From Schmidtea polychroa (lineage: Eukaryota), in NCBI GenBank assembly GCA_044892525.1, contig CM097885.1, positions 213,714,001 to 213,778,000 of the forward strand: a DNA stretch of 64,000 nucleotides, read 5' to 3'. This document shows positions 25,450 through 62,701 of the stretch, one piece after another (the stretch's first letter is position 1; the number at the start of each line of letters is the position of its first letter). The notes under the pieces were generated by a model, which saw nothing but the letters and a program-made list of their open reading frames with translations, was not told where the DNA came from and made no database searches. The position numbers and the translations under genes were made by a program.

Positions 25450-26117
25450 ATTAAGATATATTTCAAATTTTATACATAGCACTAATTCTGCAATTATTTT
25501 CAAAACTATTGTAGAAAATGTGTAAGCTTTTTCTAATTGAGAATAGAATGGCATCGGACGTCTATATATCAAATTTATACTTACATGAACAGTCAGTTAT
25601 GATTAACCTTTTAATCTCCCATATACAGCCAACAATGTACAAAAAGTCCATAACCCATAATGGAATGAAAACGTAAAACCAGCTCCAATCAATAGATTTA
25701 TTAAGTTTAGAAACTACTAATATCAAAAATATGTTAAATAAAAATAATATGGTTATTATTTTAAATCCACTAGAAATCTAAAAAATATTAAATAAAATTA
25801 TGACTTTAACACTTAAAGAAACAAAATATTAAATTATGGAAAAAAAATTATAGAAAAAATTGATAAATGATGAATTCAGTAATTTTGATTTTATAAAATA
25901 TCTTAAATTATAATAATAATTAAAAAAGTCAATTTAAACAAATGACTTTCTAAAATGTCTTAATAAATTTTGGAAGTAGTTATTATAGTTATGATGTCTT
26001 CAACTTCTAAATTCATAAAATCAATAAATCAATAATAATGCAATAAAATATATTTTCCAAAAACACGCTAAAACCAATAATATTAAAACAAACAACTTTC
26101 CATAACTCTCCCCTTCT

Positions 26118-28676: not shown

Positions 28677-29280
28677 TTCATGTGAACAACTTTCGTAAAC
28701 CCTAGATCAAAAGTTGAAGCCATAAAAATACCTTTGAACTTCCGTAGCAATATGTCTAACTGCTCATTCTTCCTATCTCCAAGCATTAATAATGCTTTCT
28801 CTTCTCGTTGTGAGTCCACATATGTCCTCCCTATTTGTGACGCTTCAATATTGTCTACCTCTACCAGTCCAGTACCAAATCTCTCCATTGTATCTACACC
28901 CCCAGTGAAATCTGGACGTATATCTTTGACAACTATAACATTAATAATTCTTTTTTTCCCATTCCAATCAGCTTCTATCGTCATTGCTCCTAACGGTCTT
29001 TCCATTCCCGTCGAAAATACTCCACAAAGAGAAATTGTGCTCTGCTTCAACTTCGGTTTCCCAATCTTTGTCCAACTTTTTCACTCATAACTGATACTGA
29101 CGCTCCAGAGTCCCAAAGAATGTCAATCGCCGTCATGTTTATTACAATCTTACTCCACTTTCTTCTGTCTGTCGTCTCATACATCTTCTGCATCATGTCT
29201 TCATTTCGCTTCTTTCTACTGATTATTGTGTCGACCCCACTGACGAAATGAAAGCAATGGGATCGTCCTTGTTTTTTGGT
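28673..29280 (-). CDS. Gypsy aspartic protease region, broken by two 1-nt frameshifts
   Basis: ILWDSGASVSVMSEK (DSG at 29112-29104) continues only after a -1 shift (WTKIGKPKLKQSTISL). It joins the RT ORF only after a second -1 shift near 28690. Confidence 0.85.
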
Positions 29281-30471
29281 TTATCCATTGATTTTTTTTA
29301 TCGTTTGTTCGTAATTACTGTATAAATCTTCTGTGAAATCACCATTATTTCTTTCGTGATCTTTTTCGTAAATACATGCCACTCTCTTCTGATATCCATT
29401 TCTATTTTTAAGCAAAAAACAATCTCTGAATCCATGACCTTCTTTTCCACAGATTAGACATTTGTCTTTCATAGGACATTCAAAACGCCGGTGCCCTTTT
29501 TCTCCACAACAAAAACACTGACCTGGTGTCAGTTTCACTGGATGAGGCGAATCTCTTCCTTTGCTGTCATTAAATAACCTTCTTGCAATATCTTTAAGCG
29601 ATACTGTAGGTATTCTTCTCTCTGGTTCTCCTGTCTCATATCGTCCTCTATACCGCTCATTTTCATTCTTGTCTTCATTTACAATTGGTACAAACCGACC
29701 ATTACCAGGTCTATTCCTCTCATGGTTAATCTCTCGGTGTTCGTCGCGTTGATGTGCAGTTGTCTTCACAATTGTTCTTTGGTCTCGTCTACCCTCGAAT
29801 TTACCATTTTTCATCACTGATGCGTAAGAGTCTCTTCTTATGGCATCAATATTGAATTTATTGTCATTCGTCATCTCGATCTTCTCCTGAATTTTTGCCA
29901 TATCCCTGGCATCTTCAAAACTTGTCACTTTCCCTGATAAGAATATTTCTTTTACTCTATCGTCTTTCGCTCTGTTTGAAATAATGTCTCGAACAATCTG
30001 TTCATCAGACATTCCAGAGCTAAATACACTTTTAACTAAACTTCTTACTCGTATTTCGAAGACTTGGAATCTTTCATCTCTCTTTTGCTGAATTTGAGCT
30101 AGTTCCACAATCTTGTTAGTAATGGTTTTCCTTACTGTAAAAGTTTCTATAAACCACTCTTTTGCCATTTCATCGGTCATCTTCGCTATTTTCGCCGCTT
30201 CCCATAACATCGATGCCGCATCTGTCAACAAAAGATCCAATGCGTCTACTAAACTATGATCTTCTATTCTCAGCCATTCCATAATATCCTTTAGCCAAAG
30301 TTCGGCTTCAGATCCAACTTTTCCGTCAAACTTTCTTACATTAAAATTTAGCAATTCACGTGCTTGTTTTGACAAGGAATCTAACATATTCTTAGTTCCT
30401 TTCTTTTTTCCTATCGCATTGATTTCCTTGGCGTGGTCGCCAGTTATGATGTCTTCAACTTCTAAATTCAT
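29281..30471 (-). CDS. gag: Gypsy Gag with two CCHC knuckles; ATG lies inside the 5' LTR
   Basis: 396-aa ORF; RKFDG...WL motif; CFCCGEKGHRRFEC and CLICGKEGHGFRDC. Confidence 0.92.
   Translation of the reverse strand: MNLEVEDIITGDHAKEINAIGKKKGTKNMLDSLSKQARELLNFNVRKFDGKVGSEAELWLKDIMEWLRIEDHSLVDALDLLLTDAASMLWEAAKIAKMTDEMAKEWFIETFTVRKTITNKIVELAQIQQKRDERFQVFEIRVRSLVKSVFSSGMSDEQIVRDIISNRAKDDRVKEIFLSGKVTSFEDARDMAKIQEKIEMTNDNKFNIDAIRRDSYASVMKNGKFEGRRDQRTIVKTTAHQRDEHREINHERNRPGNGRFVPIVNEDKNENERYRGRYETGEPERRIPTVSLKDIARRLFNDSKGRDSPHPVKLTPGQCFCCGEKGHRRFECPMKDKCLICGKEGHGFRDCFLLKNRNGYQKRVACIYEKDHERNNGDFTEDLYSNYEQTIKKING
30432..30442 (-). promoter_or_regulatory. Primer-binding site, tRNA-Arg(UCG)-like
   Basis: TGGCGACCACG directly abuts the LTR end and is complementary to a ...GUGGUCG-CCA tRNA end. 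The same PBS start occurs at 9009. Confidence 0.8.
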
Positions 30472-30999
30472 AAAATCAATAAATCAATAATAATGCAATA
30501 AAATATATTTTCCAAAAACACGCTAAAACCAATAATATTAAAACAAACAACTTTCCATAACTATTATACAGTAAAATAATTGTGAACAAATTACATTTCT
30601 ATTAATATTTTATATTAATTACATAATAACAAACATAAACTAAATCACAGATGAGGAACCCGAAGACCGCCGTTTTTTTGTTTATATTAAAAAAAAGTGA
30701 TTATTTTTTCACAGATAAAATTTAATTGTAATTTTTTATAATTGGTTTATAATAAATACTTTAAAACTTGATTTTTTACTATCGTAAATTTTCAAAGAGT
30801 TTACTTTGTTTTTACCATTTAGTTATATGTAAACATATAAGCAGAATTTAAAAAACGAAAATCTATCAAATGACGTTCATTTTTTCTAAAATATCTTATA
30901 TAATGACTTTGTTTTTTTATTAAAAAAAAGAATGTCAAAATTTAAAAAAAATGTAAAATATTCAATATTATTAATTATTTTATGTATAAATAAATTTTA

Positions 31000-31325
31000 A
31001 AAAAATGACCACCGATCAAGACTGAGTGATGTACGATTAGAAAGCTGCGTGAGTGTAGCTACCTCATCAATTCCGGCTGATATTGATCAGCTTGTATCGA
31101 AAAAACAGTGCCAAATTTCTCATTAAAAATTTCAAATAAATTCGTTTTATTGTTCTTTTTTTGTTTGTTTTTATTTTTCATTAAAATTTGTATATGAAAT
31201 CTTTACTTTTTTATATATTTTATATTTTTTATTCTAATGTTTATTATAAATAAAGTTTTATAAATTATTAATAAGTGTTACTTTATGTGCGGCCCGCAAA
31301 AAATTTTAAAATTTAAATTGGCCCG
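31000..31325 (+). mobile_element. 3' end of a hAT-Buster/Charlie-like element
   Basis: RSRLSDVRLESC.SVATS.IPADIDQLVSKKQCQISH* followed by subterminal gcggcccgc/ggcccg motifs. Confidence 0.7.
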
Positions 31326-31960
31326 TTGATTAAAAAAATACAAACTGATGAAATTCATGATCACTACTTGGGAAAGCGAATTCAAAACGAGCTCATTTCG
31401 TTGATGGGAAATAAGGTAAGGGAAATTATTATAGGACGAGTAAAATTTGCAAAATACTTTTCAGTAATACTTGATTGCACATCAGACCAAAGTCACCAAG
31501 AACAGATATCAATGACAATTCGCTATATAAGCCCAGGAGTAGGATATTCTGAAGTAATTCACGAGCACTTCATTCGTTTTCTAGAAGTAGAAGAAAGTAC
31601 TCTACAATACCTGCTTGATGTCTTACTATTCGAACTGACAAGATTGGGCTTAGCTGTTTCTAATATCCGCGGTCAACGATACGGCAGCGGTTCGAACATG
31701 AAAGGGCATAAGTCAGGCATACAGGCTCGTATTTTACAATTAAATCCTAGAGCATTTTTTACCCCTTGTACCTGTCACAGGTACAACTTGCTACTATGTG
31801 ATATGGTAAAAACGTGTCCTGATGCAATGACGTTTTTTGGTATAATTCAACAAATCTATGTTTTATTTTCTGCTTCAACAAAACGACGGGCTATCTTTTC
31901 CAAGCATGTTCGAAATGTTTCAGTAAGACCAGTTTGTGAAAGTTTTGTACCATGGCGGCG
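31326..31960 (+). mobile_element. hAT-Tip100/ZMYM1-like transposase core fragment
   Basis: IQNELI...YFSVILDCTSDQSHQEQ...RGQRYGSGSNMKG..SGIQARI...PCTCHRYNL...FSASTKR. Confidence 0.9.
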
Positions 31961-34900
31961 AAATGGGATAAAACAGGTGAGCCCCTGCCTTAGAACTATT
32001 CTTCCACCCTGTTCCGACTAACTCTGACTGACTTGCAATAGAAGGACTTACGTCGCATTTCTGTTCTACATCCTCGATAGAGATTTTCTATCTGATGTCT
32101 TCGAAATATACTCTGGAATATTCGGAAAACAACGAAATCGACACGCTTGGCTACCATGAAATCGACTGCATCATACCTATTCATAAAATCTCACAAGTAC
32201 GTACTAACACGAAAAATTTTATTTAAGACTAAATTTTTACGTCACTACACTAACAACAAAGAAAAAGAATCACTGTACAAAAACTAATCTCATCATTTCG
32301 ACTTAGAAAAAGGCAGGTTGTGAAGAGAACATCTCATGCCCTGTCTGACGCTGTTTCAGCGAATAATGCCTCTGGTTCGAATAGTTCCGCAAAGTTGTCT
32401 TCCCATGCCGTATTAGTTGCTGTCACAACAAGAAATTCCATTGCTACATTGCTCGTCTGAAAAGTGTTGTCAGCTACCTTCCCATTATCGACTTTCAGTA
32501 TGGCTTCCTTTTCGACTCCTCGCATCTTCTGTTTCTTTTTACGCTTGACCCGAGATAATTGCCGGTGTTTTGGTTTCTCCCGCTGCACTGGATTTTTAGA
32601 TATGATTGGATGGCTGAGTTGGTTAAGGTATCACTCAGCTGGTGCCGGTAATAATTACTTCTGAAGTAGAATGTGATAGGTCAGCTTCTACGCACCCCTG
32701 GCACACTTTTCTCGATGATTGACGAGAAAGATCTTTATGATTGTGGTGAAGGGGGAAAATGTTATCTGCTTCAGCGATTGGGATGTCGACGATCTTTTCA
32801 TAATTGTAGCTTGTATATACATTTTATGCAAAGCTTCCGAAGGTTCCTTGATTAATAATCGTTGAGTTCGACTCTCTTAGATTAAACTGACCCGGCAATG
32901 CTCAATTCGGAACAGTTTCTTTTGTAATTCTTTCATGTTCCTTCAAGTGGATCGATTTTTCTTTTCAGGAGCCCTATCTGAGTTTGTTAATTAAATGCAT
33001 ATCTTTGTGAAATAGCTAGTGACATAATACAAATAATTATAATCTGATTTTGTCAATATGATTGTAGATGATTCGACAGAAAATTCCAATCACATAATCT
33101 TGAAAGTTTATCTGATTCTTCAAAATTCGTTTAGTGAAAAGATTCTTATCATAGAAGTTTGAAGTAGACTAAGACTACTAGGAAATTAAGTACATAGTAA
33201 AACGATGAAAGGACAAGAAACAACGAGCTATAATATCTTCTACGGTAGCCAATGAACCCAGCCACTCATCGGATCATTAACAGTTCTTAGTATAGAGGTC
33301 GCCTTTTGCAGACAGCCACCCGTTAAATCGCAGTACCAACGTTGCATGCAACGTGTGTTTAGTGGTTAATTAAAACAATTATGCGCGTTTGGAGAGGGGA
33401 ATGTGAAAACAAGGTAAGTGTTGATCGGATGAAAGTCTAGAGGTGAAAGATCTTCCCCATACATAACCCACGAACTTCAACAAATATATATTAAACTGTA
33501 ATAGTCAAATCAATTCAGAATTACATAAATCTGACAAACGTCATATTGATAATTGTGAATTGATAAATGTTGTATTGACTATCTCATCAATTTCTGTTTC
33601 TTTCCATGTACACTTTCATCTTCTTAAACAACTACTTATATTCATTGATAAGCTCTAAAAGAGGCTTGAGAATCTCAACGCGCACTAATTAGTATATAAA
33701 TAAATATATCAAAACAAAATCTGGTTTTCTGTAACTTTTATTCAAAACTTAAATTCTCAAAATTGGTAAGTGTAATAAGTACTCTAAATTTTCAATAAAG
33801 AAGTGTTGGCTATCGCATGTATATTAAATGAAAAAGTTTCCTCTATTAATTTTGAATAAAACTATGAATAAAACTTTTAGAAACTTTTGTAGTTGAGTAA
33901 AGTGATACTTTTCTCAATGCTGACTTATTTTATTGGACATATTTTCCGATTAGTGGGCATTATTTTACTAATTTGTTTAAACAGCGTTACAGGTTCTTGA
34001 AGATTCAATAACACTTAACGTACGTGCCCGTAACATAGACGGGTGAACATTATATTTCCTTACGTGGTTTTTCATGTTTGTTCAAGACGTGGGCGAGTTC
34101 TAATATTTGTATAGACACCTGTACTAAATACTTTCTATAACAAAATAGATGTCACAGTTATGAGTTACCGAAAAATAAATGTGTACATTAGGTGGTTAAT
34201 GTCGATAATATTTGTGCTTAAATTCTTACGTACTTATATTATTACTATTTTTGGGTTAAGAACTGAATTAGAATTTTTCTTTTGTTTGTGGATTTTGAGC
34301 ATAAGATTTTTTTTGTGTTTCATTAAATAAAATGAGGACTGTGAAGAGTCAACTGAGATACCAAAATAAGCATAGAAAAGGCATTAAGTTTAGTTAAATT
34401 ATAATATAACATCAATTAAAACAAATTAAAATAAACAGAATTAGAATAAATAAAAATAAAAGTAATTAAAATCAAAACTGGAAGAAGGGACATAAATGAG
34501 AAAGCATAGAAAAAATAAGTTATCGCAGAGAAAAGACACGAAGCAAAATTATCCCGAGGTGGATATATAAAGCGATATATAAAAGAAGCAAGATCGAGGA
34601 AAAATAATATAATTTAAATAAAATTGAGTAAATTAAATGAAAAAATAAGAAATTAAACCAATCAAAATGATTTGAAACGGAATCTAAAATAAACAAAAAT
34701 TGTAATAAATTAACATTTTTACTCGATCCTGATTGGTTGAAAAGTCATTAAAAATACTAAATAGCTCCCTCTCAATGGACACTTCACTGTTATTTTTCAA
34801 TGCTATTAAGTAAATCATTCAATACAATCCAAATTTTTATTCAACGACTAATTTCAATTTATTCAGCGATTTATTCATAGAAATTATCAAAATTCCACCT

Positions 34901-44616: not shown

Positions 44617-45349
44617 AGTTTCGTACTGATGGAAATTAAATGGATTGAGATTAACTTAGTCCGCATTCTCAAAGATCTAGGTTTTTTATTTTATTACTTG
44701 TTCATTGGGTAATATTTGTACTTTGTCTTAATTTATTATTATTATCAATATTATTATTCTTGTCAAATAATAATTTTTCTCTATTTTTGATAAATCATGG
44801 TGGAATATCCAGCTTTTTCAAATGAAATAAATTTGAAAGTACAATTTTTTAATTTAATTTAAACAAATAAATTGGTTGATCAACAGTGACGCAATAACAT
44901 ATGATTTGACATATAAGACAGTGATTGTGAAGATTGTTATCATTACTATGTTAACCAGAATTCTTGTCATGGTAATCATTTGTTATTTCAAACGTGTTGA
45001 CAGATGAAATAAACGTTTTGGTCATGCAAGTGAGAAAAGACGGATTTTCTCACGATGCTTATGTTAAGTTGAATTTCATAAATAACAGCATATTCTTTAA
45101 TTATTTTAGAAAACAGATTAAGCCTCGAGCACAATCTTTTTTATTTTGTTATTATCATAATATAAATTAATTTTTAAAAAATGTTGCATTATTAAAAATA
45201 CAATGGGAAATTTTAAAGTGTAAAGGAAAAAGATTTCAAATGTTATGAAATTAAATTGTAAAATAATTTGAATTTTTATAAATATTTTCAATTCTAATGA
45301 TGTATGCGTGTTCTTTCAATGTACAGTCCTGTATTTTTCAAATTACCTT

Positions 45350-46935
45350 ATTGCAAACAAAAACCACAGTTTTTCATTATTTGATATTGTGAAAACTTTT
45401 GACATAACATTAAAATATATTTTTTAGCATATAATTCACAGAAGAGACGCAAGACTTCGTGGAATGATAAATATTCCCAAGAATTCGGATTCAATAAAAA
45501 GCTGATAATAATGAATGCAAGGAGTTTTGTACATTGTGCTCTACACAGCTTTCAATTGCTCATGGGGACACCGAGATATTATGCAACATATTTAAACAAA
45601 CCGACATCAAAATTGTATTAGAGTGAGATCATCAAATAAAAAGGCCTCGGATTTTTTAAACAGCTTGTAGACACTAAGAATTAACATTTGCATTCCATAC
45701 AGCATGCACGATTCATCATTCCGCTTAAATAACTGTACGGCAAGTCTAATTCGAAATTTTTTTGATTCAAAATTCTTCTTACCCCGGACTAAAAAGCTGC
45801 AGTTATTACAAATGTTATTGCACCCTTCATTGACACACTATGAAAAATGACGTTAAGAATAAACATATCATTACGATCATGACTGACACATCAAACCACA
45901 AAAATGTTAAGTTTTCATTAATGCAACAATGCAATAACACAATGCAATAACCGCTGGATTTGAAATTCTAGATGTTTATATAGAAGCAGTAATGGTATCT
46001 TTACAAGCATTTTAACATCTTTTCTGTGCGTACCGAAAGCTTCAAAAGTTTATTCGATGAGATGGAAGAACCCTACAAACTTTTATAAAAATCATACAAG
46101 CACTCGTTTTTGTCTCTTGGTCCAACTGTACGGCGTCTAATAGAACTATTTGAACCATTAAAGGAATATTTTTTTACTCTCAAGAATTGTTCACTATCAA
46201 TTCTTAAGTTTTTCAACAATCCGGATAGCAAGTTTTGGATTTTATTTGTATCGAATCTGCTTATGAATTTCAATACGGTTAATTAAATCTTCAAAAATCA
46301 CACTTTTTGAGATTGCTAATCAAACGAAGGTGTTAGAGGACAAGTTAATGAATCAATGAAGCGTCTGCTTTTTACCTCACTAATCTCAGCAAGAATTTCA
46401 ACAACTTGATAATCAAACTAAAAATGAAATGAAGGAAAAGGTTACTGATTTTTATGGCACTATTTTAAATTATTTGGATATCTGGAAGAGTGCTTTAGAT
46501 GGAGCAGAATAATCTACATATATGTTAATATATAAATCTCCATTTTCGATTGATATTAAACTCTCAGTTTCATTTGCAGCATGAAAATACGAAGAAAGTC
46601 TTTTTCAAATTATTAATCGCGACATACTTTTCAATAAGTTTTGTCTTTTGAGAAATTTTGTTGACGAAAAGATTCCAATTTGGTTGAATTCAAAGCTATC
46701 TCCAGAAAATATCTGGATAAAATTTTCACAACTTTTCGTAAAAATTCCACGGCTTTAATTAACATGGAGAAATTTGCGGAATTTGCATTTTGTCTAGCTG
46801 GTACATCGACAGAAGCAGAACGAATCTTTCCTCTGATAAATAATATTTGGGATGATAACAAAAGTCGTTTGGATGTTAGCACACTGAATGCTATATTCTC
46901 ATACCAATATTACTCGAAGATAACCTGTCTTGAAA
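45350..46935 (+). mobile_element. Decayed hAT-superfamily transposase
   Basis: IMTDTSNHKNVK (first catalytic D); HTSTRFLSLGP.VRRLIELFEPLKEYF (TRW-like); LAGTSTEAERIF..INNIWDDNKSRLDV. Confidence 0.8.
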
Positions 46936-48077
46936 CTCTCGAGGTGGCTAAATTGACGGAAAATACAGAGTTCAAATCAATGGACGAATTTTCATGGGGA
47001 GGATTATATACACCCAATGATATGGAAGAGGCTAGACAGGCATTGCTATTTCTTCACATTAGTGAGAGAAATATAACTGAAATTATGAGAACCATATACC
47101 AGGCCAACGATATGCAACCAGAACATAACCTGTTATTCGAACCACCAAATTACAAAGAAGCGGCGAAAAATATGATGATAAAGTTCTGTGGGCGATTTAC
47201 CAATTTCAGTTTCCTCACAGTATGCTCTGCAATATTTGCGGTATTTGTGATCCTGAAGTTAATCATCATTCAATTACTATTAACTTATAATATATTTAAA
47301 TTAGGAGGCTGGTCTTGGAAGCTACTTCTAGAATTATGACCTATGTGTGCAGAGTTTAAGGTTTTCAAGCATTATAGAAAAGAGATAAAGCAGATCATAC
47401 ATAAAAGCTTAGTGAAACATGAAGTTGTGGGAATCGAAAAGGAGGAGAATCCGAGTTATTTGGACGATAACAATTCGAATGGAGAGGGTAATGAAAGCTT
47501 AAATAATGCGTCAACTATAAAAAGTAGTGAACTAAAAAACCATCAATAAAAACCACATTCTCAGAAGAACAGAGCCCATATAAAGATTACCTACCACCTT
47601 ACGAATCTTCAAAACGAATTTTTGTCGGAGGTCAACTATCTGAAGGTGAATACGACGGTTCTGAAATAAAATGCGAGACAACATAACGCAAATTATAACG
47701 ATGTCCAAGGTATTTTCAACTACTAAACATAAGAACCTTGCCATCAGCTACTAGAGTGGATAAATTTATTTCAGTAACTCTACCAAGGTTAGAGGGGCTA
47801 CATTATCAAGTGGAAACTCTGGAGCCAATGAAACCTGAACAAATGAATTCATTTAAAGTTAAAAAGATATGACCCACAATGGATGGATACAAACCAATCA
47901 GATGTAGACAGAGCAAAAACCATCAGAATCTTTCACGGAACTCTGTTTATATTAGATAGAATACGGATTTCGTGAAAAAACTAATGATAAAGATAAGAGT
48001 TAACCGGAATAAGTAGGTAGTTAGTTGCACACTGCAGCACGACCATCTTCCAAAGAAAAGGCCGGGGGGAGGGGGTT
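46935..48077 (+). mobile_element. 3' end of an LTR retroelement carrying a chuvirus-glycoprotein-like env fragment, ending at a PPT
   Basis: GGLYTPNDMEEARQALLF...F..FSFL..CSAIFAVFVILKLIIIQLLLTYNIFKLGGWSWKLL. Purine tract aaggccgggggaggggg at ~48058-48075. Confidence 0.65.
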
Positions 48078-48159
48078 TAAGTTGCTGCAGTAATATTTTT
48101 TTGCTTTTTTGGTTACGTAACTGCTGCAGTATGCTACACTTATTTTTTCTGGAATTTTC

Positions 48160-48425
48160 AATAGAAAAAAGGTCCTATCGAAAAAAAACCAGGATTTCTC
48201 TGACTATAGTGAAGAAGTCTCGATGGAACCTGAGAATTTCAAGACAAAATGGTCCTATAGAAAAAAGCCAGGATTCCTCTGACTATAGTGAAGGGTCTCC
48301 TTGAACCTGAGAATTTCAAAAGAAAAAAAGGTCTACACTAAAAATTCAGGGATATTTCCAAGTACAATTAAGGTGGGTTTCCTTGGTCTTGAGAATTTCT
48401 ATATAAAAAGGTGGTCTTCACTAAA
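48160..48425. repeat. ~80-bp tandem repeat, ~3.3 diverging copies
   Basis: ggtcct/ggtct anchors at 48171, 48251, 48330 and 48413, with recurring tgagaatttc. Confidence 0.75.
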
Positions 48426-49001
48426 AAAGCATAGTAAATAAGTAAATTAAAGTAAATTATGGTCCAAAATTTAAAAGTAAAGTAAATTATGGGACTAAAA
48501 ATTGAATTACAGTAAATTATGTATTACAGTAAATTATTACAGATAAATTAAGTAAATTAAACCACCCATTTGATACAGTACCAATTTTGTTCACCCAAAA
48601 TGTATCAAAAAGTTAGACTCCTTATTTCCTGGTTTACTTTAGAAAAAAATCCAGAAGAGATATATTTTGCTTAACTTAATCACCACAGCTTATATATTTT
48701 TTTATTTTCATAAATTTAATTTTAAAATTTGCGTTTATTTATTAAAATGACAATAAGTTTCGACTAGAAACAGGATGGCGAAATGTTTGGGAAATTGTTT
48801 ATGAAAACTGTCAAATTATCTTAAAATGTGGAAATATAATAATTTAAAATGTTAAGAATCATTATTATTATTCTACATTTAAATTAAACTTAAAATAGAT
48901 CGTTTTAATTTATCAATGTAATTTTCTTAAATTCAAATTGTTTAAAGTTTAAATTAAATTCTGAAAGGAAGAAATCTTGGAATTATAGTATATAAATGCA
49001 A

Positions 49002-52000
49002 ATGGAATATTTGTATATTCTTTTAAATATACTTTTTATCACTTTAATCAATGGCCAAACTAATACACCAATGTGCTCATCAGATGATGCAGTTGCAACT
49101 GGTTTATAAAATTGATTCTTATCTATATTTAATATTTTTAAGGTTGCCCAACTGGATGGTACAGTTATCGAACTAATTGCTATAAATTAAACAATTCACC
49201 AGTATCGAATTTCATTCAAAGTCGAGATGCTTGCAATGTATGTATTGTTAATTTAAGTTCAATCTTAATCTCTGTATAGCTTCTTGGTGCTCGATTATTA
49301 AGAATAGAAAGTCTTATTCAGCATCAATTCTTTTCTGCATTGCTAGATAACAATGCCGTGAATCGATCGTAAGTACTAGTAGGAATGTTATTTTACTAAA
49401 CTTAAAATAATAGAATTCAGTGGTACACAGCAGGGGCAATGACTTCTAGTAAAATGGGTATATATATTTGGGATGGATTTCCACCTGATTTGCAAACATT
49501 CAACCCGGAACTTTTGCCACTATTAATCGATGTACCCGACTTGAATAATAAAAATGCATGGAACAGTGAACGTTTAAAAATCGTCTACATTTATTACAAC
49601 ATGAAATGGATGTTAAATATCACATCGTCTACCGATACCAATTATTTTATATGTGAAGCACCGAAATCTGTCATTGCCAAAACAATTTCAATGTCAAGAT
49701 CAGCCGATTTTGGCCAGGCTGATTTGACGGACATTAAACGTGGTCCCTGTATCCTCGATCAACCCACTGATCAGTTGTAAGTATTTACTAAAGTAAAAAT
49801 AAAAATAACATAATAAATGTATCCTGTTCATGTCATTGTTTAAATCATTACTCATTTCAATTCCACATAATTCTAAAATTTTAATCGTTAATCATAATTC
49901 ATTGTTTTTGGACAAGGCGCTTTTATACTAATCAACTTGAATTTTTTTTATTTAGATGTGATTTTCAATAAAAATTAGTTATTTATTTATAAATCTATTT
50001 AATTAATTTATTAGTTATTTGATTATTAATTTAATTTTTATAAACATGTTATCATAATTCAAAGATTCTAGGAATTGGTACTTAAAATATTACACAGCAT
50101 TGTATCCCGACAATACTTCCCTGCATTACACCCTGTCAATATCCGCTGCATTGCACTCGGTCAGTATTCCCATACATTACACCCGGACAATATCCACTGT
50201 ATTACACCCGGTCAATATCCCCTGCATTGCACTCAGCCAATATGTCCTGTATTATACCCTGTCAATATTCCCATGCATTACACCAAGCCAATATCCTCTT
50301 GCATTACACCCGGCCAATATCTTCTACATTACACCCGGTTAATATTCTCCCGCATTACACCCGGCCAATATTCCCCTACATTACACCCGGCCAATATTCC
50401 CCTACATTACAGCCGGCCAATATCTCCTACATTACACCCGGACAATATCGCCCTGCATTACACCCGACCAATGTCCCCCTGCATTACACCCGATCAATAT
50501 CCCCTGCATTACACCCGGTTAATATTCTCCCGCATTGCACTCGGCCAATATATCCTATATTATACCCTGTCAATATCCTCTGCATTGCACCCGACCAATA
50601 TCCCCCTGCATTACACCCGACCAATATCCCCCTGCATTACACCCGGTCAATATCCACTGTATTACACCCGGTCAATATCCCCTGCATTGCACTCAGCCAA
50701 TATATCTTGTATTATATCCTGTCAATATCCTCTGCATTGCACCCGACCAATATCCCCCTGTATTACACCCGGCCAATATTTCCCTGTATTGCGCTTGGAA
50801 AATTTTTTGATTGTCTTTAGGTTCATGAAAAATGCGATTAACTTGTCAAGCTTTTTCATTTTTCAAATTTACTTTAAACATTCAGAAATTGTAACAACAT
50901 CAACATCCGATTCATGTAAAATTTTCAGTACCATTTATTATGTATGTATTTTCCACTAAATATCACGTGAAAAAGTCTACTAAAAATTAAAAAAATGTAA
51001 AATAGAAAAATATTGTTCTATATTGGACAACTAAATTTTGTATATTTATAAAATTATAGCTACCTATCATAAATTTAATAAATATATTATAAAATGATTA
51101 ACATTTACTAATTGCGTATAATATCAACTTGTATTACCTTTATCAGGTATGTACCATCGGTTTCGAACTCCAAAGTTGTTACCTTTACCTGCAATGTTTA
51201 TGGAAATCCATTTCCAACTGTTTCTTGGTATTTCATAATGGACACAACTCAAGGATTACAAAGAATTTTAATAGACCCATTAAAATATAGTAGTGGCAAA
51301 GTTACACAAACCGGAGGTCTTTTAACGATAAATGAGCCCGACAATACCTTTGACAACAAAATAGAGTGTCAAGTTCAGAATGATTATGGAACTGTCATCT
51401 CAAGACAAGTTCAAATTATTCGAGGACGCCTGGAAATTTACAACAAGAATCCTCGTCAATTAATGCGTATCGGGGACAACGTGGGATTTATGCTTGATTG
51501 TGAACCTCCTGATCACGATCCAAAAGATAGTAAAATCTTCCAATAGTTACAATTTCATTTATATTTCACTAGGCATCGTTTATACATTTTATATAACTCG
51601 TAAAACTGATAAAGGAGAAATCGTCGATGACGTTATTCAAAGCCAATTGAGAAATAATATTTTCTTATCGTACAATCTTGGTTTAATAGGATTTTCTATT
51701 GGCAGTGTGAAAGTTGATCTATAATTTCCCTATGTTAGATTTATTGATGATCTAGGATTCTGGAATTTACAAATGTATGGTTGGATGGAGAGGCCTCACC
51801 GGAACATCATATAAATCACCCGATATCCCACTTGAAGTCTATGCCTCCAATACACTTTATCCAGTTCCAAATGTCCATGACAAATTCCCAAATTTTAAGC
51901 CTTCTAATCCGTTTCTCGGTGACACATTGACTTTTGAATGTTTTGGCTATGGAGAAATCAAGCAGAATCCACTGAAATATTTCTGGAAATGGGTAAGTTC

Positions 52001-52023
52001 GCTGAGAATTACACATTAAAAAT

Positions 52024-52060
<37 letters not shown>

Positions 52061-55000
52061 AGCTAAGGGTTCCCTTCATCCGAATTTTACTTTTTTTATT
52101 ATGTTTTTTTATTTATTTTTATTTTTTGCTTTTTTAATATTTTTTAATTTTTTTACTTTTTTTTATTATATTTATTTTTATTATTTTTTAAAATTTTTTT
52201 TTAATTATTTTTTTTAATATTTTATTTTTTTTTACTTTTGGTTTTTTTAATATTTTTTAATTTTTNNNNNNNNNNNNNNNNNNNNNNNNNNNNNNNNNNN
52301 NNNNNNNNNNNNNNNNNNNNNNNNNNNNNNNNNNNNNNNNNNNNNNNNNNNNNNNNNNNNNNNNNNNNNNNNNNNNNNNNNNNNNNNNNNNNNNNNNNNN
52401 NNNNNNNNNNNNNNNNNNNNNNNNNNNNNNNNNNNGACAAATTTCAGAACAACAAACCGTTGCCATCGAAATCTGTTATATCTGATTTTGAGAGAAGAGT
52501 GACATTGGAAAATATTCAATTCGAAGATGAAGGCGATTATCAGTGTTACATAGAGACAATGGACGGTAGGGTTTCTTTGCCCCGTAGTGTCAAGCTGGTT
52601 ATTAATGCCAAACCGACTTTCGTTGTCAAACCGAAAAATCAATATCCAGATATCGGTTCAACAGTAACCCTAACCTGCCAAGCCGTTGGTAAGCCACAAG
52701 TCAGCATGCAATGGTACAGAAATGGGCAACCAATCAGCAATTGGCTCACTAAAAATCCCGATCAACGCTACAATTTCACCGAAGGAAACGTTTCGCTCGC
52801 TTTGCTTGTAATCAACGGTGTTAAAACCTCAGACAACGCGATGATTGGCTGTTACATTTCCAACATGTTCGGCAAGGAGTCGGCATTTGTTGAATTGAAA
52901 ACGATATCAATAGTTCCAAACTTTGATAAATATCCCCTTCTTAACACGGAAGCCATTATCGGTATGAAAACAATAATTCCCTGCCAACCGGAAGGATCCC
53001 CGACACCAACGATCACATGGACTAAAGACGGTACAGCATTAACATTGGTACCGTCGGTTTTCAATCAAGTTATCGGTGAAATTGATGTTAGTTTTGTTCT
53101 TTATGATTAATTTAATGAATATCAATAATGCGGTTACCTATAGTCAGAAATTGCACTCTACACAACATACAAAGATATTCGATTCTTCAAATAAGATTTA
53201 CATCCATAAAAGAATTGATTAAATATATTTTTGTTAAGAATTTCCCATAAAATTTTGCAATAACTAACAAAAATATGAATATAAATAAACATAATCACAT
53301 CATTATTGTAATCCAATCGATTTTTTCATTGGCCGTTTAATAATTGGGCTTTCTTATTTTTGAATAAGCCAATTTTCATTGCACCATGCTTTTACATTTT
53401 GAATTTTTTACATTATAATGTGAGTCTCTTACGCCACCAATAGTTACCGCGCACTGGTTAGCAACAGAGGGCCCCTACCCCCTCTTTTTTTTCAAGGTCA
53501 AGCCGCGATTATTGATTTTTAAATTTTTAAAATTTTTATTGATTTTAAAGTGCAAAATTTTCAAATTAGAAATTCAAGTATTGATTTAAATGTGATTTAT
53601 AGATTAAAAAGTGAATGTTTACTTTTTTGTTTTATCTCACTGTAGCGCGGGAGTTTATACATTACACTTAGTACTATTATCAAACTTATAATTCAAATAA
53701 CTAATAGATCTAAAAATAACTGATTTTCTTATTAAAACATTCAACTTTACACTTTGCTTTTCGTTTATCTATTTGATTCGACTAAACAACCTCAAAATCG
53801 ATTAAAAGTGATAAAGTTGCATGTAAATGTCGACTTAAAACAGCAGTGGCCAACCCGACCGTTTGAAAATGCGGCACTCAAAATGATTTGAAATTTTACA
53901 CATGAAACATCAAATGCCTTTATCTTAGAATTAAAATTTAATTATATAAGCTAGTTTTTGTACAAATCATTTCATACATAAATAAATACTATGTTACAAT
54001 TTTATTTCCCGAATTTTTATTTACTAGTGCAATTCTCATTTATGTTCCCTACCGAACAATAATTTACTCATCAAAAGTGTTGTAGCATCTGACAAAGGTA
54101 CATATGGATGCATTGCCACCAATTCAATTGGAACGGCAAACAGTTCAGCATATTTGGACGTAATTAATCCGCTTACCGTTAACAATCGTCCTCTCAGTCG
54201 CCGAGTCCAATTAAATAGCAATGTTTATATGCCTTGTCAAGCTTCCGGCACTCCATATCTTGATATTGATTACGATTGGTACTTTGAGGTTGATTTCAAT
54301 ATTTTATCAAAATTTCATTGGCATTTTGAACCAAATTTCAGAATGTTCAACTGAAATTTGACAGAATGGACTTGGATGCCCGTAGATATGACAAATCGCA
54401 ATTTAGGAGACCATATTATCGATATTTTGGGACCCTGATAATATACAACATTCAATTCTACGATGAAGCAAATTATACATGTAAAGTCACCACGCCATTC
54501 AGTGTTAATGAATATTATGCACTTATTCAAGTTATTGGGCCACCTGGAGTCGGAGGAGGTGAGTTTCAATTTCAATTTGAGCATTTATTTATTTTTAACT
54601 TCTTGACTCGTTTCATTTTTATCATTAAATATTAACTTGAAACACGTATAGAAATAATTATTGATGATGTAAGTTTCATTATCGAAAAATTCGTGTTATT
54701 TTTACTAAAAATCAGACAACGTCATATTTTGTATTAAAATAAATTCATATCTTATTCTTAACATGGAACATAATTTCCATTATATAAATTAAATATGAAT
54801 CTGCAAAATTCTCGTTCAATAAAAATTTTATTATTGGTTCAAGTTCAGATTTGTATTTAAAATAAAAAAAAAATAAAAAATTCTGTAAGTTTTGTTGAAA
54901 AACATTCGTTTTATTTCAGGAAAAAGATATTTTATAGTGAACACTTTTTAAATTGAGTTCTAACTTGAGTGGTTAGAACATCTAGAACTTCATAAGGCAA

Positions 55001-58000
55001 TGATATCACATTTAATTTGTTCATAAAACTGTAAAACACTTGGTAAATTCTCATATAAATTTTAAATGGAATTGAGATGTGCATTGGAAAAGCAACTCCA
55101 GGATACATTCTCGAACCATTTGATAAACTGCCATAGTGTGTGATATAGGATCACTAGAGTTCAGAACGATATCCGAGGAACGACCTGAAGCGTACAAAGA
55201 ATTGCTTGAATTGAAATATACATCACGGTTATAGTCGTAAATATTTTGATTGTCATAATCGTCGGCATTTGAATTTACATACTCATCAAAATTTAATTAT
55301 CATTATCATCAAAACTTTTATTGATACATTAAATGTCTCCAATATAATTTGAGTCATGGATCCTCTGTCAGCTTTGGGAATATTGAAAAGAACTTCTCGA
55401 TCAGATGCGATAGATTTAACATGAACAAAGATATCCTTAGAGCTACTATCATTGTCAATACTTATGAATTCATATCCATTCTTTTAGTTACAACATTTCA
55501 TAATAAAAACGAAAGTTTTTAAGAATCTTTATTCTATCACAAAATCCGCGAAAACTCCTTTTAAAACAAGAATTCCCTTAGAACAAAAACTAAAAAATCA
55601 ATCAAAAACCAAAACATCTTGCCTCGCGTCTGTGCGCAACCCAACAGAAAACGTACATCAATACTCTGCGCACACAGACGCAATCCAGAATTAAACTCAG
55701 GATTGACCAAAACTTTTATTTTTTTTTATTTTACATTATGAATATGTTCTCAAATGGCTTCACTAAAATCTGAAGAACTAGTATTCAGTTGTTGAATCGT
55801 TAATCGGAATATACAAAGTTTTTAATATAATTTAATCATTAATTGTCAAATAATTTAATACATTTGTTGTATAAGTCAACTCATTTGCCATATACTTTAA
55901 TCATTATTATTTTCAAATAATTTAATCCATTTGTCATAGAATTTAATCAATATCATATAAAATAATTTATTAATTGGTTTATAATTTAATCCGTTTGCCA
56001 TATAATTTAATGCTAAATAATCCCAATTCTATTCTTATCCATCACATTATCATACAAATATATTCTACGAGTAAAGCACCTCATTAATGTAAAAATAAGT
56101 TTTACATTTCGCGACCTTTTAAGTTAATAAGGTTCTAGATTTCCTAGAAACATGTCAAGTATATAGAGTAGCACTTCCTCTAAAATTAGAGTTAGAAATT
56201 TAGATGCAATTCTTAGTTCCAATCCCTGCATTCCAAAAATGACAATTTTTTTATGTTTGTGCACATAATACCTCCAAAAAGCCTCTTTATTTTTTTCGTA
56301 AAATATCCGTTATGAATTTTGCTATTTTCTCGACCCAGTATTGGAGATCCACAACTTTATCCTATAATATCAGACCAAATTTGAATTTATCGGATCAAGA
56401 AGGGTGATATTTCATACATAATCTAAGCTTTCATACGATTTTTTTTAATTTCGTATTCCTAGTACTTTTTAGTGTTACTCTTTCCAAGGTATTTTTTTCC
56501 AAACCACATGATTTTAAAAATCTGGAGATTCCAACAAAAGTAATCGTGACCCATAGTTTGAATTTTAATAAATCTTTCTCAGATATTCAAAGCTGAAACT
56601 GAAACGTAAATCGTGCATTTTCAATTTTTCTTAACGGAACACTGATTCCTTTCCCGCATAACACAATTTTAGAAACACTGCTAAATGCCAATACATTCAT
56701 ATAATTTTTTATTCATTTATATGATGGAAATATATATTTACATTCTTTATAATTATAGGCATTACAGTGACACCTGTCGTAGGAAACGTCAGTAATGTTG
56801 TTGAATGGACTGATGGCTATGATCATGGCCACCCAATTCTCTGGTATCGATTAGAAGTTGCCAAAGAAGATGGAACGCAAAAATGGTATCCTCTGAAGGA
56901 AAGAATCAATAAAACAGATATNNNNNNNNNNNNNNNNNNNNNNNNNNNNNNNNNNNNNNNNNNNNNNNNNNNNNNNNNNNNNNNNNNNNNNNNNNNNNNN
57001 NNNNNNNNNNNNNNNNNNNNNNNNNNNNNNNNNNNNNNNNNNNNNNNNNNNNNNNNNNNNNNNNNNNNNNNNNNNNNNNNNNNNNNNNAACAAGAACTAC
57101 TATGAATTATCCTGCATTAGACTCAAATTGTCTATTGTATTAGGTTGAAAAAATTATTTATTTAATTATAATTATTTAAAAATAATTAAATGTTTTTATT
57201 AAATAAAAAAGTTTTTATATAATTAATAAATTTGTTTAAAATCCTTAATTTACATAGTTATTATATCCCACCTGATGATGACAGGAAAACTGTCGAAATA
57301 TATCGTGTAAAGAATGTTTGATTGGCGTTATCTTATAATTAAATCATTNNNNNNNNNNNNNNNNNNNNNNNNNNNNNNNNNNNNNNNNNNNNNNNNNNNN
57401 NNNNNNNNNNNNNNNNNNNNNNNNNNNNNNNNNNNNNNNNNNNNNNNNNNNNNNNNNNNNNNNNNNNNNNNNNNNNNNNNNNNNNNNNNNNNNNNNNNNN
57501 NNNNNNNNNNNTCTTGGTATCAGCATTAGGGTGGAGCTTATTTTTGAACTTTCAAAATATTACCTTCTTACCCTCCCATTCTGTTCCTATATATGAAAGA
57601 AAAATTCAGGCAAAATATGAACACAATTGAACAATATTTAGGGGTAGCTCAAGGACAGAGAAGTTTCTGATACTCTTAAGCAGCGGCCGCCCATTTATTT
57701 ACGGTACCTTACTATAGTAACTGAGAACTAAGTAAATTGAGACTTTCTCAGACTCTGATAATCATACAACATTTCAATCCTATTTTTACAATATACAATT
57801 AACACAAATTCTTCATAGTCCAGGCATGATCAGACTTGTTTAGCATGTTTACTGTGTGGACTGGCTATTGCAGGAGTTTGACAAATGTGTTTATAAATTT
57901 AAATTGATAACAGTTGATAACACTACTATTAAAGTGAGCATTAAATTGCTGGTAGGCCACTGAAGTGAAGCAAGCCTTCCTGAATCTATAGCTGCTGGTA

Positions 58001-61000
58001 AGTTAGTTGAATGTTATTTGAATATTGAATATTATTTTCAATGTTTAAGTGTGAATAGTAATTAAATGAAGATATAGATTAGTTAGATAAGTAAATGTGA
58101 ATTTTGTAATACAATTATTCAAATTAACATATCAATCCATGATTCCAAAGTCAATGCTATTTTTATAATATTCATTTCAGATTCATTTCTGTAATAAAAT
58201 GTCATGAGTTGCAAAAGCAACACGATCTCAAACTGAGTTATATCTTCTTGGCGATTCCGTGACTCAGTTACGTGGCAGCAAGCTGCCATCTTTACATATG
58301 GCTCTTGGACTCTTCCTACATCACCATCTGGAACTGAAAGAGACAATAAGACAATCATCGGCTGTTACCATTACAGAAGTATCGAAGTTTTGGCAGAAAG
58401 CGAGGATCCCGATGAGAGATCATCAAAACTGCCAAACCAAGGTTGAGCATCCATTTGAAGAATGGCGTCTTCTGAAAAAGAACAAGGCACGATTATCAGC
58501 AACTCAACTAGCGAGAGAATCAGCTTTTAGTTCCAAGCTCGAGGATCTCTTTGATCTTGCTCATGCTGATGCACTGACCAGCCCCTCGGTACTACAGGAA
58601 GATAAAAATTTCTTGTTAGCCCAGAGAGAAAAAGGAAGAAGGGGGTCGATGACTGGTGCAGATGAAAAACTTGCTGCTAAGGAGAAAAGATCATTTGAAC
58701 GAGATGAGCAAATGCTTTCGAGGCGACAGCGAATGGAGCAAGTGAAGCAGTTAGCAGCTTCTACCGCTGAACTGATATCGTCATCTTCTGAAACCAGCTT
58801 AGATGGTGGAAACATGAAAAGTGGAGAAAATCTGAGTGATGATGCTGCAGGAGGCAGCACATTTCGGACGCCAAAAAGAAAGAGGGGGCGAAAAACTGTT
58901 ATTACTCCAGAACTTGCAGTAGCTTTAGATAGAACTAAAATGTCAGATCGCAAGGCTGTTTTCGTTATTGCAGAAACTGCTAAAAGCCTGGGACAGAACA
59001 TCGATGAACTTGTTCTAAACAGAGACTCGATTCGACGACTTAGGGTAGAACATCGAGTTCAGAGAGCTGCCAACATAAAAGCAAAGTTCCAGGATAATGT
59101 ACCACTTGTAGTTCATTGGGACGGCAAACTGATTCCTGATCTGATTGGAAAGGAGAAGGTTGATCGACTGCCGGTTTTGGTTTCTGGAAAAGGAGTATCT
59201 CAGCTACTTACAGTTGCTAAGCTTCCATCTGGAACAGGCGAAGCTCAGGCTGCTGCTGTATATGAAGCCATCAAAGACTGGGGCATAGCCAAGAATATCC
59301 GAGCTATGTGTTTTGACACTACTAGCTCAAACACTGGTCGGATTGCTGGTGCTTGTGTACTGTTAGAGCAGAAGCTTCAGAAGGAGTTGTTATCACTGGC
59401 TTGTAGGCACCACATTATGGAACTGATAATTGGGGCAGTTTTCCAGGTCTGCATGGGAGCCTCATCCTCCCCAGAAGTTGCACTCTTCAAACGCTTTCAA
59501 GAGTTCTGGAGATTTATAGATACGGCTAAGTATGAAGCAGGCACTACAGCTGATGACGTAGCAAGTTTACTGGAGGATATAAAGCAAGACACCGTCGATT
59601 ATGCCAACAAGTATCTTGAACAGAGTCAGCCGAGAGATGACTATAAAGAATTCTTGGAACTTGTAATTGTCTTCCTCGGTGCTGCTCCTCCCAGAGGTGT
59701 ACGGTTCATGGCACCTGGTGCAATGCACCATGCTCGTTGGATGTCCAAGGTGATATACAGCCTAAAAATTTGGATGTTCAAGGCGCAGTTCAAGCTGACT
59801 ACTGCAGAAGAGCGAGGGTTGCGTGATGTTTGTGTATTTGCAGTACGAGTGTACCTGAAAGCTTGGATATCTGCACCTCAAGCAGCAGGTGCTCCATTCA
59901 GTGACTTGCTGCTGCTGAAGTCGCTGCTCGAGTACTCATCAATACATGCAGCCATTTCAAAGGCAACATCTCGCAAGTTTGCAAATCATTTGTGGTACTT
60001 ATCTGAGAAACTGGTAAGCTTGGCTTTTTTCGACAGTCGGGTCAGTTCGTCAACCAAACGACTGATGGTGAGTGCCATGCAAAATGATGAAAACCAGGAT
60101 TCTGATCATTGCAAACGTATCACAGTTGCTCTTGGTTCATTCAAAGAGAAAAACTTGGAAGATTTTGTCACAGCTAAATCAATGATTCTGCTTCAACAGC
60201 TTGAACTGCCAGATGGATTTCTTGCAGTTGACCCAGACTTGTGGGGAGACAGAGATGATTACAAACAAGCTGCAGAAACAGTTACATCTCTAAAAGTTGT
60301 AAATGACCATGCTGAGCGTGGAGTGGCCCTCATTCAGGAATACAGTGGATTAATCACCCGTGATGAAACACAACTACAATTCTTGCTGCAAGTTGTCCAG
60401 GACCATCGCAAAATGTATCCCGACAGCAGGAAAAAGACTCTGTCCGCCATCTCTGGGTTTACATAATAACAGTTAATTTCAAGTTTGCTGGACATTTACA
60501 GATTGTTTGTGTCAGAAGCTAAAGAAACATTTCACTATTAATGTCTATGTGTGTAACACTGAAGTTTGCAAAAAAATAAAATAGAATCAGAATTTGTTGA
60601 ATTTACAAAAATTTTATCATATTTCAGGCACTTGAGCTACCTCTAAACATAAAAATTTATTGCTTAAACTTTTTATACAGTGTTTCTATACCATAAGGAA
60701 CAGATTAGGGGGGTAAGACTTTCAAAAATTATTTTTTTATTTTTTTTTATTTTTTAAGCTCCACCCTAATCAGCATTAATAAAATGTTAAACAATAAATG
60801 ATAATTTAAGTCATTTGTTAAAAAATTGAAAAGGACTATTTTTATAGTTGAAAATTCTTTCATTTTATTAAATATATACTTCGCAACAAAAGGCTTAAAT
60901 TATCATTTAATTGTTTGATATTGTTATTTTCATTTATTATTAATATTATTAACATTATTGTTTACTTATTTATTTTTATAATTTATTATTATTATATTAT

Positions 61001-62701
61001 AGTTTGGTTTATGTTATTAAAATAATCAATAATCCTTCTTAGTTCTGGTATCCAATCTACGACCGACGTTATCAATGTTATTTTTTTGCACTATGAAAGT
61101 TCTCTTCGTTTTTTGAATAACCTTGTCGGCCTTCAATTTAGGTTGTCTCGAAAAATAATCGTTTTTATCATCTTTTACATTTTTTTAATTTATAATATGA
61201 AATTAAATTCTTTCAATAAATCCATCATAGAATGTAATATATTTCCCCTCTTCAAATGTTAATATTTCAATTTATGAATGTGACCACTTAACGGATTTGA
61301 AAATAATTAATTAATTCATTAATTAAATAAAATCCGTTAAAATCATATAATTCTTCATTTTAATTCAAACCTCTTTTAAAGATCTGAATCGATTAAACGA
61401 CATTTTTTCTTTTTTTTTCATCTCTACTAAAAATAATTCTTGGAAACTCTTCTGAATATTTACATAGCTTCCTATAGAAAATCACAATTCACTAGTTTAG
61501 TCATTATTTTGATAATATTACCTTTGTATTTTAAATTAATTTCACCAAAATTAATTAATCAATAATCAACGTTATGTTGTTTTTTAATGATATTCCATTT
61601 ATTTTTGCATTCTAATAAAAGATCAAAAATTTTAATTCTATACAACAAAATCTTTGGCTATGGCTTTATTCTGTCTTAAATAGAAAATATATGACTTGAT
61701 TTCAAGGTGATTGTTAAAAATGACCTTGACTTATTTGTGACTCACATTAAAGAATCAGTATTTGTGTCCTTTACTTGACGACTAATTTTCTTTTTTGATC
61801 TCCGTGACTCACATCGACCTACTTTAACTTGCGGTTTTTTTTGTAATCATTGACAACGAAATATAAGTCAAAATATGAAAACGAAATGAAAAATAGTAAT
61901 TCCATTATAACCAAAATGTTATGCTTCCTTATAAAGTCGTTTGTTATAAAAAAGGAATTTTTAATTTACTTGCACGAAACACGTCGAAAACTATTGATAA
62001 AAGATAGTTTTAAAAGGATTGTATTATACAAGTAATATATTTTACTTAGTTTCAATAATATTGACAATGTATCACTCATTTGTCATGTAAATGAATTATT
62101 CATTAGTTTTACTGTAAGAAAATTTTCTTATTTGGAGGTATAAAACTAATCCATTTCGAATTATTATAACAAGTCATTTTATTTCTAAACCTGTTCCAAT
62201 TTTAATTTACATATTTTTTCGGTTATTACCAAAAAGGTTACAATAACAACGGCATAGACCGGTTATCAATAATTTCCATTAATTGTAGATAATCTGATCA
62301 GAAATCAATTTGTATTTTCTGAATTGCCAGCCAATACTAATTTCCGATTGAGGCTTTTTGCAGCGAATAGCTTTGGATTAGGTGAACCTAGTGGTCCAAG
62401 TGAAATATTCAAGACTGCAGCTATTCCTCCACAAAAGGCACCGAAAAATGTTACCGGAGGCGGTGGTAAAGTTGGAACACTTGTCATTCGGTGGGAACCT
62501 TTATTACCTCTCGAAGAAAATGGTGATAATTTCGCGTATGAAATTAGATACAAAGAATCCAAAGAAATAGAATGGATTACTGCAAGCAACTTTATAAATA
62601 AATCTCTGGATAATGATAAATATCGTCAAGTAACACTGGATTTACCTGCTAACAAGGATTACATTGAATTTCAAGTGCAAGTTCGAGCGAAAAATATGAT
62701 G
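49002..62701 (+). CDS. Cont: Invertebrate-type contactin (signal peptide, C-type lectin, 6 Ig, at least 2 FN3), 3' end beyond the window. Approximate exons: 49002-49101, 49143-49237, 49280-49368, 49414-49776, 51147-~51530, ~51573-51712, 51756-51992, ~52436-53086, 54028-54288, 54342-54558, 56759-gap, 62289-62701
   Basis: MEYLYILLNILFITLINGQ signal; CPTGWYSYRTNCY..C..LGARL..WYTAG lectin; six Ig C...W...YxC sets; GPPG..EWTDG.DHG.PI and FRL..FAANSFGLGEPS.PS FN3 motifs. In-frame GT-AG introns. Confidence 0.9.
50089..50790. repeat. 25-bp minisatellite (~28 copies, consensus cattacacccggtcaatatcccctg) in a contactin intron
   Basis: Directly visible periodicity. Frame rotation every 25 nt explains the 25-aa periodic ORFs in all three + frames. 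Confidence 0.92.
55335..55501 (-). pseudogene. Degenerate cold-shock-domain fragment in a contactin intron
   Basis: MKCCN*KNGYEFISIDNDSSSKDIFVHVKSI..DREVLFNI.KADRG versus the CSD consensus VKWFN..KGYGFI..DD...DIFVH.SAI...EV.F.....KG. Confidence 0.55.
57269..57307 (+). ncRNA. Minimal type I hammerhead ribozyme motif with intact core
   Basis: cac-CTGATGA-T-GACAG(gaaaa)CTGTC-GAAA-TATAT-C-gtg: stem I cac/gtg, perfect 5-bp stem II, palindromic ATATAT stem III, AUC cleavage triplet. Confidence 0.75.
57527..60768 (+). mobile_element. Full-length hATm-like DNA transposon (3242 bp) in a contactin intron
   Basis: 14-bp TIRs TAGGGTGGAGCTTA; perfect 8-bp TSD ATCAGCAT (57519-57526, 60769-60776); 5'-UTR intron 57998-58180. 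Confidence 0.98.
58199..60466 (+). CDS. hATm-like transposase; ATG at 58199 is followed by TGA at codon 3, then 753 open codons
   Basis: MS*VAKATRSQTELYLLG...GSKLPS...HWDGK...FDTT...CRHH...NDHAERGV. Confidence 0.9.

Follow-up and report, generated by a model that had tools for sequence, protein, structure and literature searches.

A decayed gB/chuvirus-G-type env fragment in a triclad genome, probably an internal remnant of a GAG-ENV-POL Ty3/gypsy retrotransposon

Env-bearing LTR retroelements of the type discussed here have already been published for planarians. Burro and GYPSM1 are giant gypsy-like LTR retrotransposons of Dugesiidae; Burro exceeds 20 kb, with a single giant ORF, Bcl-2-like, ubiquitin-like, ankyrin or BIR domains and long LTRs. 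Its env lies in frame between the Bcl-2-like domain and the protease and gives matches to mononegavirus fusion glycoproteins, and decaying Burro fragments have been noted in Dugesia japonica (PMC6431247, in the sections consulted). For the errantiviruses of Platyhelminthes, of which nine elements are given, the accessible part of PMC13524379 reports env of the HSV/gB type only, in the order GAG-ENV-POL, and its section 10 favours an ancient env over recent capture from a virus. Anakin elements are mosquito Pao elements with a chuvirus-like glycoprotein (PMC7642597, in the part available).

We analysed a 64,000-nucleotide stretch of DNA (the window), in which a piece of an env gene of this kind is preserved (Table 1). 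The host is a flatworm, which the sequence-only reading of this DNA had thought probable: a contactin exon shares 69% identity with its counterpart in Dugesia japonica (E 1.3e-104), the next match being 36% identical. Contactin/TAG-1 exons extend over 49601-62698 (+), are 62-85% identical to D. japonica contactin and mark the host as a triclad, apparently one other than D. japonica; one contactin intron contains a tandem array of 25-26 base units at about 50040-50810.

Table 1. Features at and around the env piece (window coordinates)
Feature	Position	Strand	Basis or remark
Decayed hAT-like DNA transposase remnant, left edge approximate	45440..46931	+	PF05699, ESM Atlas, stops, depth
Env C-terminal piece (membrane-proximal region and transmembrane helix), HSV-gB/chuvirus-G type	46932..47336	+	PF24664, phmmer, tblastn; junction inferred
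Env transmembrane helix	47211..47285	+	Kyte-Doolittle 19-residue windows 2.7-2.8; aligned with hydrophobic stretch of relatives
In-frame stop inside homologous region, lesion rather than natural end	47337..47339	+	Homology runs on beyond
Decayed tail and linker after env	47340..48011	+	Stops, copies shared, no Pfam match
Possible first aspartic protease strand, ending at repeat boundary	47978..48010	+	Weak; spotted by eye, then tested
High-copy non-coding interspersed repeat (HINE- or MITE-like), truncating the retroelement piece	48012..48620		Depth, flanks, tandem arrays
Purine/G tract, internal copy-variable part of the repeat	48052..48075	+	Called PPT in the sequence-only reading

The window piece resembles Burro in its triclad host and in an env akin to mononegavirus-type fusion glycoproteins. 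Its relatives (labelled with P numbers) share an env placed in frame between Gag/Bcl-2-like domains and protease, and P0032, with ankyrin, has the Burro layout (PMC6431247, in part). Unlike Burro, the window copy is a 1.1-kb piece only, and its nearest clade is not that of the most Burro-like relative, P0032. Smed_errantivirus_1-6 agree with the relatives of the window piece in env type and in the order of genes, and the env rows given for Smed show a cysteine and motif pattern like that of P0005, P0009, P0013 and P0019, compared by eye over the N-terminal ectodomain, which lies outside the window piece. The Smed_errantivirus elements are intact and present in 1-215 copies, whereas the window piece is a low-copy fragment (PMC13524379, in part). 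With Anakin the piece shares a class III chuvirus-G-like env family within an LTR retroelement, but Anakin has a BEL/Pao backbone and belongs to mosquitoes, whereas in the relatives of the window piece env is followed by RT, RNase H and H2C2 integrase of gypsy type (PMC7642597, in part). The glycoproteins of Chuviridae/Monjiviricetes and herpesvirus gB have the Pfam family in common with the piece and match the modelled fold of P0019, and are distant in sequence.

An open frame of 224 codons at 46665-47339 (+) contains the motif string from which the sequence-only reading had recognized a chuvirus-G/gB-like env. The Pfam scan found PF24664 (Monjiviricetes_fusion) at 46926-47336 (+) with E 4e-10 and 38.7 bits against a cut-off of 27, covering profile positions 463-588 of 653, the membrane-proximal last fifth of the protein. 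The ESM Atlas returned the same family for the env piece (score 0.91, taken as a lead only), and tblastn matches of env relatives begin at 46914-46938. Judged by its sequence, the piece is the C-terminus of a class III gB/chuvirus-G-like retroelement env. The family assignment, the pre-transmembrane/transmembrane region with a tail segment and the attribution to a retroelement had all been proposed earlier and are borne out, respectively, by PF24664 with the gB and chu-like matches of the P0019 model described below, by the profile span, the helix and homology beyond 47337, and by near kin that are retroelement polyproteins. Given the PF24664 match, the gene order of the relatives, the triclad host, the boundaries on both sides and the low copy number, the piece is probably a dead internal scrap, about 1.1 kb long, of a planarian GAG-ENV-POL Ty3/gypsy retrotransposon of the Burro-like or flatworm errantivirus type.

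A phmmer search of the env piece against 1.84 billion representatives gave 25 matches (best E 2.4e-16), all of which were Pfam-scanned. PF24664 was present in 22 of them; one was a 61-residue fragment with no family assigned, and the other two, P0023 and P0024, are chance matches to repetitive proteins and were left out of the tree and the env counts. The nearest relatives by sequence, 25-52% identical, are either polyproteins of retroelements or fragments belonging to that family. Env is followed by an aspartic protease in 12 of the 25 (11 above a cut-off, P0017 below it); three reach RT-RNase H and two reach H2C2 integrase, all downstream of env, and neither RT nor integrase stands upstream of env in any of the 25 matches. 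Four further relatives (P0029, P0032, P0033 and P0034) also show env followed by protease, with the complete order in P0029 and P0033, and P0032 reads Ty3 capsid, CCHC, Bcl-2 (weak), env, protease and ankyrin. Peptidase_A17, DUF1759 and DUF5641 are markers of BEL/Pao elements; none of these families was found at E 0.01 in any scanned relative, and gypsy-type RT_RNaseH and Integrase_H2C2 occur instead. A word-indexed search for longer homologs of the env piece yielded 96 candidates, none at E 0.001.

Some features of the relatives were noted in passing. In P0003, P0005, P0009, P0010, P0013, P0025 and others, env is followed by two to four aspartic-protease-like domains in tandem. In 11 of 16 relatives the first protease is preceded, at a distance of 31-64 residues, by a hydrophobic-Tyr-Pro motif. 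P0006, P0013 and P0029 have a long extension after the integrase with a hydrophobic helix at its end (by eye). P0006 (HBK71150.1), an animal-type GAG-ENV-POL polyprotein, is filed as a hypothetical protein from a 9-kb contig of a Flavobacteriaceae MAG; this is probably mis-binned animal DNA.

From these relatives, the ancestor of the env copy would have had the order GAG-ENV-POL. The sequence-only reading had instead seen a 3'-terminal env in an LTR element, either a GAG-POL-ENV gypsy or a BEL/Pao element like Anakin, with an accessory region, a PPT and a 3' LTR behind it. We consider this arrangement unlikely. The visible pol domains of the relatives are always downstream of env, and the Anakin-like BEL/Pao model disagrees with their Ty3/gypsy order and with their gypsy-type RT, RNase H and H2C2 integrase. 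The reading was to be given up if intact copies lacked pol upstream of env, and pol is upstream in none of the 25 homologs. At the locus itself no pol was found upstream of the env piece, and a decayed hAT-like transposase stands there instead. What speaks for a 3' env is that the nearest relatives are fragments without context. In the env tree, computed also without P0011, P0021 and P0027 (too short) and P0035 (region absent), the nearest neighbours of the window piece (support 96/92) are P0031, P0004 and P0008, three short fragments in which the sequence beyond env is not seen. P0031 breaks off some 80 residues past its helix, and P0012, P0014 and P0016, too, stop soon after env.

Because the nearest tree neighbours lack context and P0031 ends so soon after the helix, there is a small chance of a different gene order. 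The piece might then belong, together with P0031, P0004 and P0008, to an undescribed flatworm sub-lineage whose gB-type env would be the last part of an ORF or would follow pol close to the 3' terminus, which we regard as quite improbable. Platyhelminthes would then have a first env element of the GAG-POL-ENV or BEL/Pao kind, none having been found in the accessible parts of the literature searched. Such a sub-lineage could have been missed, since PMC13524379, as far as its available text goes, retained Ty3/gypsy elements only and found only GAG-ENV-POL.

The fold of the part missing from the window copy was approached through P0019, whose model (mean pLDDT 66, pTM 0.40) matched HSV-1 gB in Foldseek with E 3.9e-14 and a TM-score of 0.28. 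Among chu-like viral glycoproteins the best match was that of Tacheng tick virus 4, which we take to be a chuvirus (E 3.7e-39, 22% identity). Sequence identity of P0019 is 16-22% to the ten best viral fold matches and 9-13% to gB. It is conceivable that the piece is a non-retroviral endogenous viral element, that is, a fragment of a glycoprotein gene of a chuvirus or other member of Monjiviricetes that integrated alone: PF24664 is named after those viruses, chu-like glycoproteins are among the fold neighbours, and a flatworm chuvirus appears in a table of PMC10084718 (seen in part). We hold this to be very unlikely, as the best sequence relatives are retroelement polyproteins or fragments, none of the 25 matches is a whole stand-alone glycoprotein, and the low identity to the viral fold matches applies even to a full-length relative. 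No confirmed relative was found in viral contigs (query P0002, in a scan for close relatives only), in prokaryote genome contigs (query P0006) or in metagenome contigs (six-row alignment).

As for the GAG-ENV-POL retrotransposon that we favour, the polyprotein of intact relatives starts with Gag (often with ubiquitin-like and Bcl-2-like domains), continues with a class III gB-like fusogen and goes on to protease-RT-RNase H-integrase. Env would presumably be cleaved out by the protease of the element and placed in the membrane, allowing spread from cell to cell. What appears to survive in the window copy is the C-terminus of env and about 225 codons of the stretch between env and protease. The complete ectodomain with its fusion loops and cysteine bridges is absent: about 460 of 653 profile positions are missing, and hAT-like sequence lies upstream. 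Env copies are few, with a contig depth of 34-39 over env in run X1 (contig depth not being copy number); a handful of copies, about 85% identical, can be seen among the contigs. Because the copy is low in number, ridden with stops and short of so much of the profile, it cannot, as it reads, serve as a fusogen; the earlier suggestion of a potentially infectious element does not apply to a copy that has lost most of its ectodomain and carries several stops. A copy as broken as this offers no better test of the formation of infectious particles by the intact env elements of planarians.

To the left, the first 89 codons of the 224-codon frame are the C-terminus of a hAT-like transposase, overlooked in the sequence-only reading. 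PF05699 (hAT dimerisation) was matched at 46737-46907 with E 0.0097, below the cut-off of the Pfam scan, which gave no hAT match for three further upstream pieces. The top ESM Atlas matches for the hAT-like part scored 0.92-0.93, with PF05699 on 14-56% of members. The stretch 45440-46930 is riddled with stops and is multi-copy in run X5, at a contig depth of 119-441 against about 50. We place the hAT/env junction at about 46931/46932 from contig ends, depth and the position where env relatives start to align: one contig record stops at 46961, and in run X4 depth goes from 27 at 46928 to 52 at 47123, a place covered by a second env copy. The decayed hAT-like transposon most likely replaced the left side of the env element through nested insertion combined with deletion.

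The hAT-like C-terminus is in frame with the env piece by chance. That the joined frame instead represents a functional or co-opted chimeric gene, with a hAT dimerisation domain fused to an env anchor, or a domesticated env fragment, strikes us as extremely improbable. A single open frame of 224 codons does cross the junction, and contigs from runs of two studies cover the junction area, but they reach fewer than 31 bases into the env side. One run, possibly of RNA, showed no coverage of 44952-48079, which says nothing for or against expression. Against a functional gene, the upstream transposase is full of stops, an in-frame joint is expected by chance in one of three cases, the frame has a long branch (1.23) relative to its relatives in the env tree, and another copy (run X5) has frameshifting deletions in the stretch. 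A joint skipping 44873-48697 was considered as an empty site and rejected, since it had only 25 AT-rich bases on one side.

On the other side of env, the stop at 47337 does not end the homology, which runs on in the env frame as far as 47430-47580 (P0003, P0011 and P0031), so this stop reflects decay. Further stops lie at 47547, 47684, 47696, 47870 and 47957, and the open frame switches between 47531 and 47667. Among the contig matches listed, diverged copies have 47222-47427, 47642-47773 and sequence from 47862 in common; the tail belongs to the element, because these copies contain segments of it too. The unknown decayed domain of the sequence-only reading, 47531-48010, gave no Pfam match when read with X at stops, and blastp of this linker against the relatives reached a best E of only 0.58. 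From env to the repeat there are 227 codons, a length inside the span of 83-343 residues that separates env from the first protease motif in 16 relatives.

A protease in the tail of the env copy is suggested by two weak sequence traces, which disagree on its position. One is at 47978-48010, which compared with the first protease strand of the relatives was the best of 336 tail positions, ranked third of 30,478 on the + strand and was equalled by 22 of 500 shuffled tails; the signal is weak, and it is not significant under a whole-domain protease profile. That profile gave the other trace, a weak match of 5.8 bits at 47508-47648, a score reached by 2 of 300 shuffles; it came second among 190 window tiles, the first being 15.7 bits at the gypsy protease of the window. 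A protease-like motif seen by eye near 47615-47670 was dropped, being without support from the protease profile. Programmed -1 frameshifting, for which an in-phase slippery heptamer at about 47533-47541 could be the site, likewise found no support, as no downstream structure was detected (z 0.14 and -0.05) and the similarity to P0031 seems to run past the heptamer in the env frame.

The retroelement piece is cut on its right side at 48012 by a high-copy non-coding repeat. In run X1 contig depth is 2,893-19,750 over 48080-48631 against 34-39 over env, where depth is that of contigs and not copy number. Unrelated AT-rich flanks precede 48012 in at least 28 contigs (X1) and at least 40 (X4), and unique sequence begins again near 48624; the contig loose ends behind these boundaries are the best-supported ones, with 827 further. 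The repeat contains a 79-base tandem unit (48156-48333) and 10-base arrays (48440-48550). Hairpins at its left end are no better than shuffles (z -0.1 to -1.4), and one lies near the right end (z -2.0 and -2.4). HINEs are non-autonomous Helentrons with a 5' subterminal repeat and a nearby inverted copy, central tandem repeats, and a 3' subterminal repeat with a palindrome (PMC7492417, in the part available). The repeat has in common with this description its tandem arrays, 16-base inverted pairs and right-end hairpin, but its 5' inverted pair is 82 bases apart as against 1-12, and 70 inverted pairs occur in the AT-rich 800 bases.

This repeat also bears on the strong PPT reported earlier, and with it on a 3'-terminal env. 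The G tract is real: the window has four purine runs that span 12 bases or more and include 8 or more G, 48064-48075 being one of them, and it lies 730 bases after the helix, as the 3'-env arrangement would have it. Its reading as a polypurine tract in front of an LTR is not supported, since it sits inside the high-copy repeat and no partner LTR for the tract or repeat was found within the 64-kb window. The repeat begins 50 bases earlier than the tract, which other copies of the repeat do not share. Among the best-supported loose ends, unrelated flanks start at 48012 and not after the G tract, and a C-rich segment replaces the window sequence after 48047 in at least 27 (X1), 40 (X4) and 67 (X5) contigs; other contigs join 48034 to 48130-48133. 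No purine tract was found before 48012. Like the LTRs of the window's other gypsy element, the repeat opens with AGT and shows ACT close to its right edge, which would suit a 3' LTR, although three bases may be chance; the window's own gypsy, unlike the G tract, has a PPT that directly abuts its LTR. Annotators could mistake a G tract within a nested repeat for a PPT, and flatworm PF24664 matches point to a gypsy env within a polyprotein rather than to chuvirus insertions. By itself the window piece adds little: another triclad joins those with decayed retroelements that carry a gB-type env, which PMC6431247 and PMC13524379 (both in part) lead one to expect.

The window holds several other mobile elements. 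A second decayed retroelement piece lies at 10580-12470 (+), with gag (PF03732, E 0.0014) resembling the N-termini of the env-bearing P0017 (E 1e-9), P0032 (4e-12) and P0034 (6e-8); 11950-12468 looks ubiquitin-like by eye and gave no Pfam or PDB match. This piece is possibly the 5' part of another Burro-like insertion, and host-like ORFs separate it from the env piece. The compact gypsy element at 25987-30562 (-), 4.6 kb long, has identical 121-base LTRs; the 5' one is followed by a primer-site-like sequence, and a PPT abuts the 3' one. It has an RT-RNase H-integrase ORF of 862 residues and no env that we could see, and is likely a recent insertion. A decayed gag piece at 9060-9760 (+) resembles the gag of this element by eye. 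Two copies of a DNA transposon, about 99% identical, lie at 13199-17454 and 57521-60777; their transposase-like ORFs are 616 and 752 codons long and their inverted repeats 567 bases. At 31317-32018 (+) a further fragment of a hAT-like transposase was recognized by eye.
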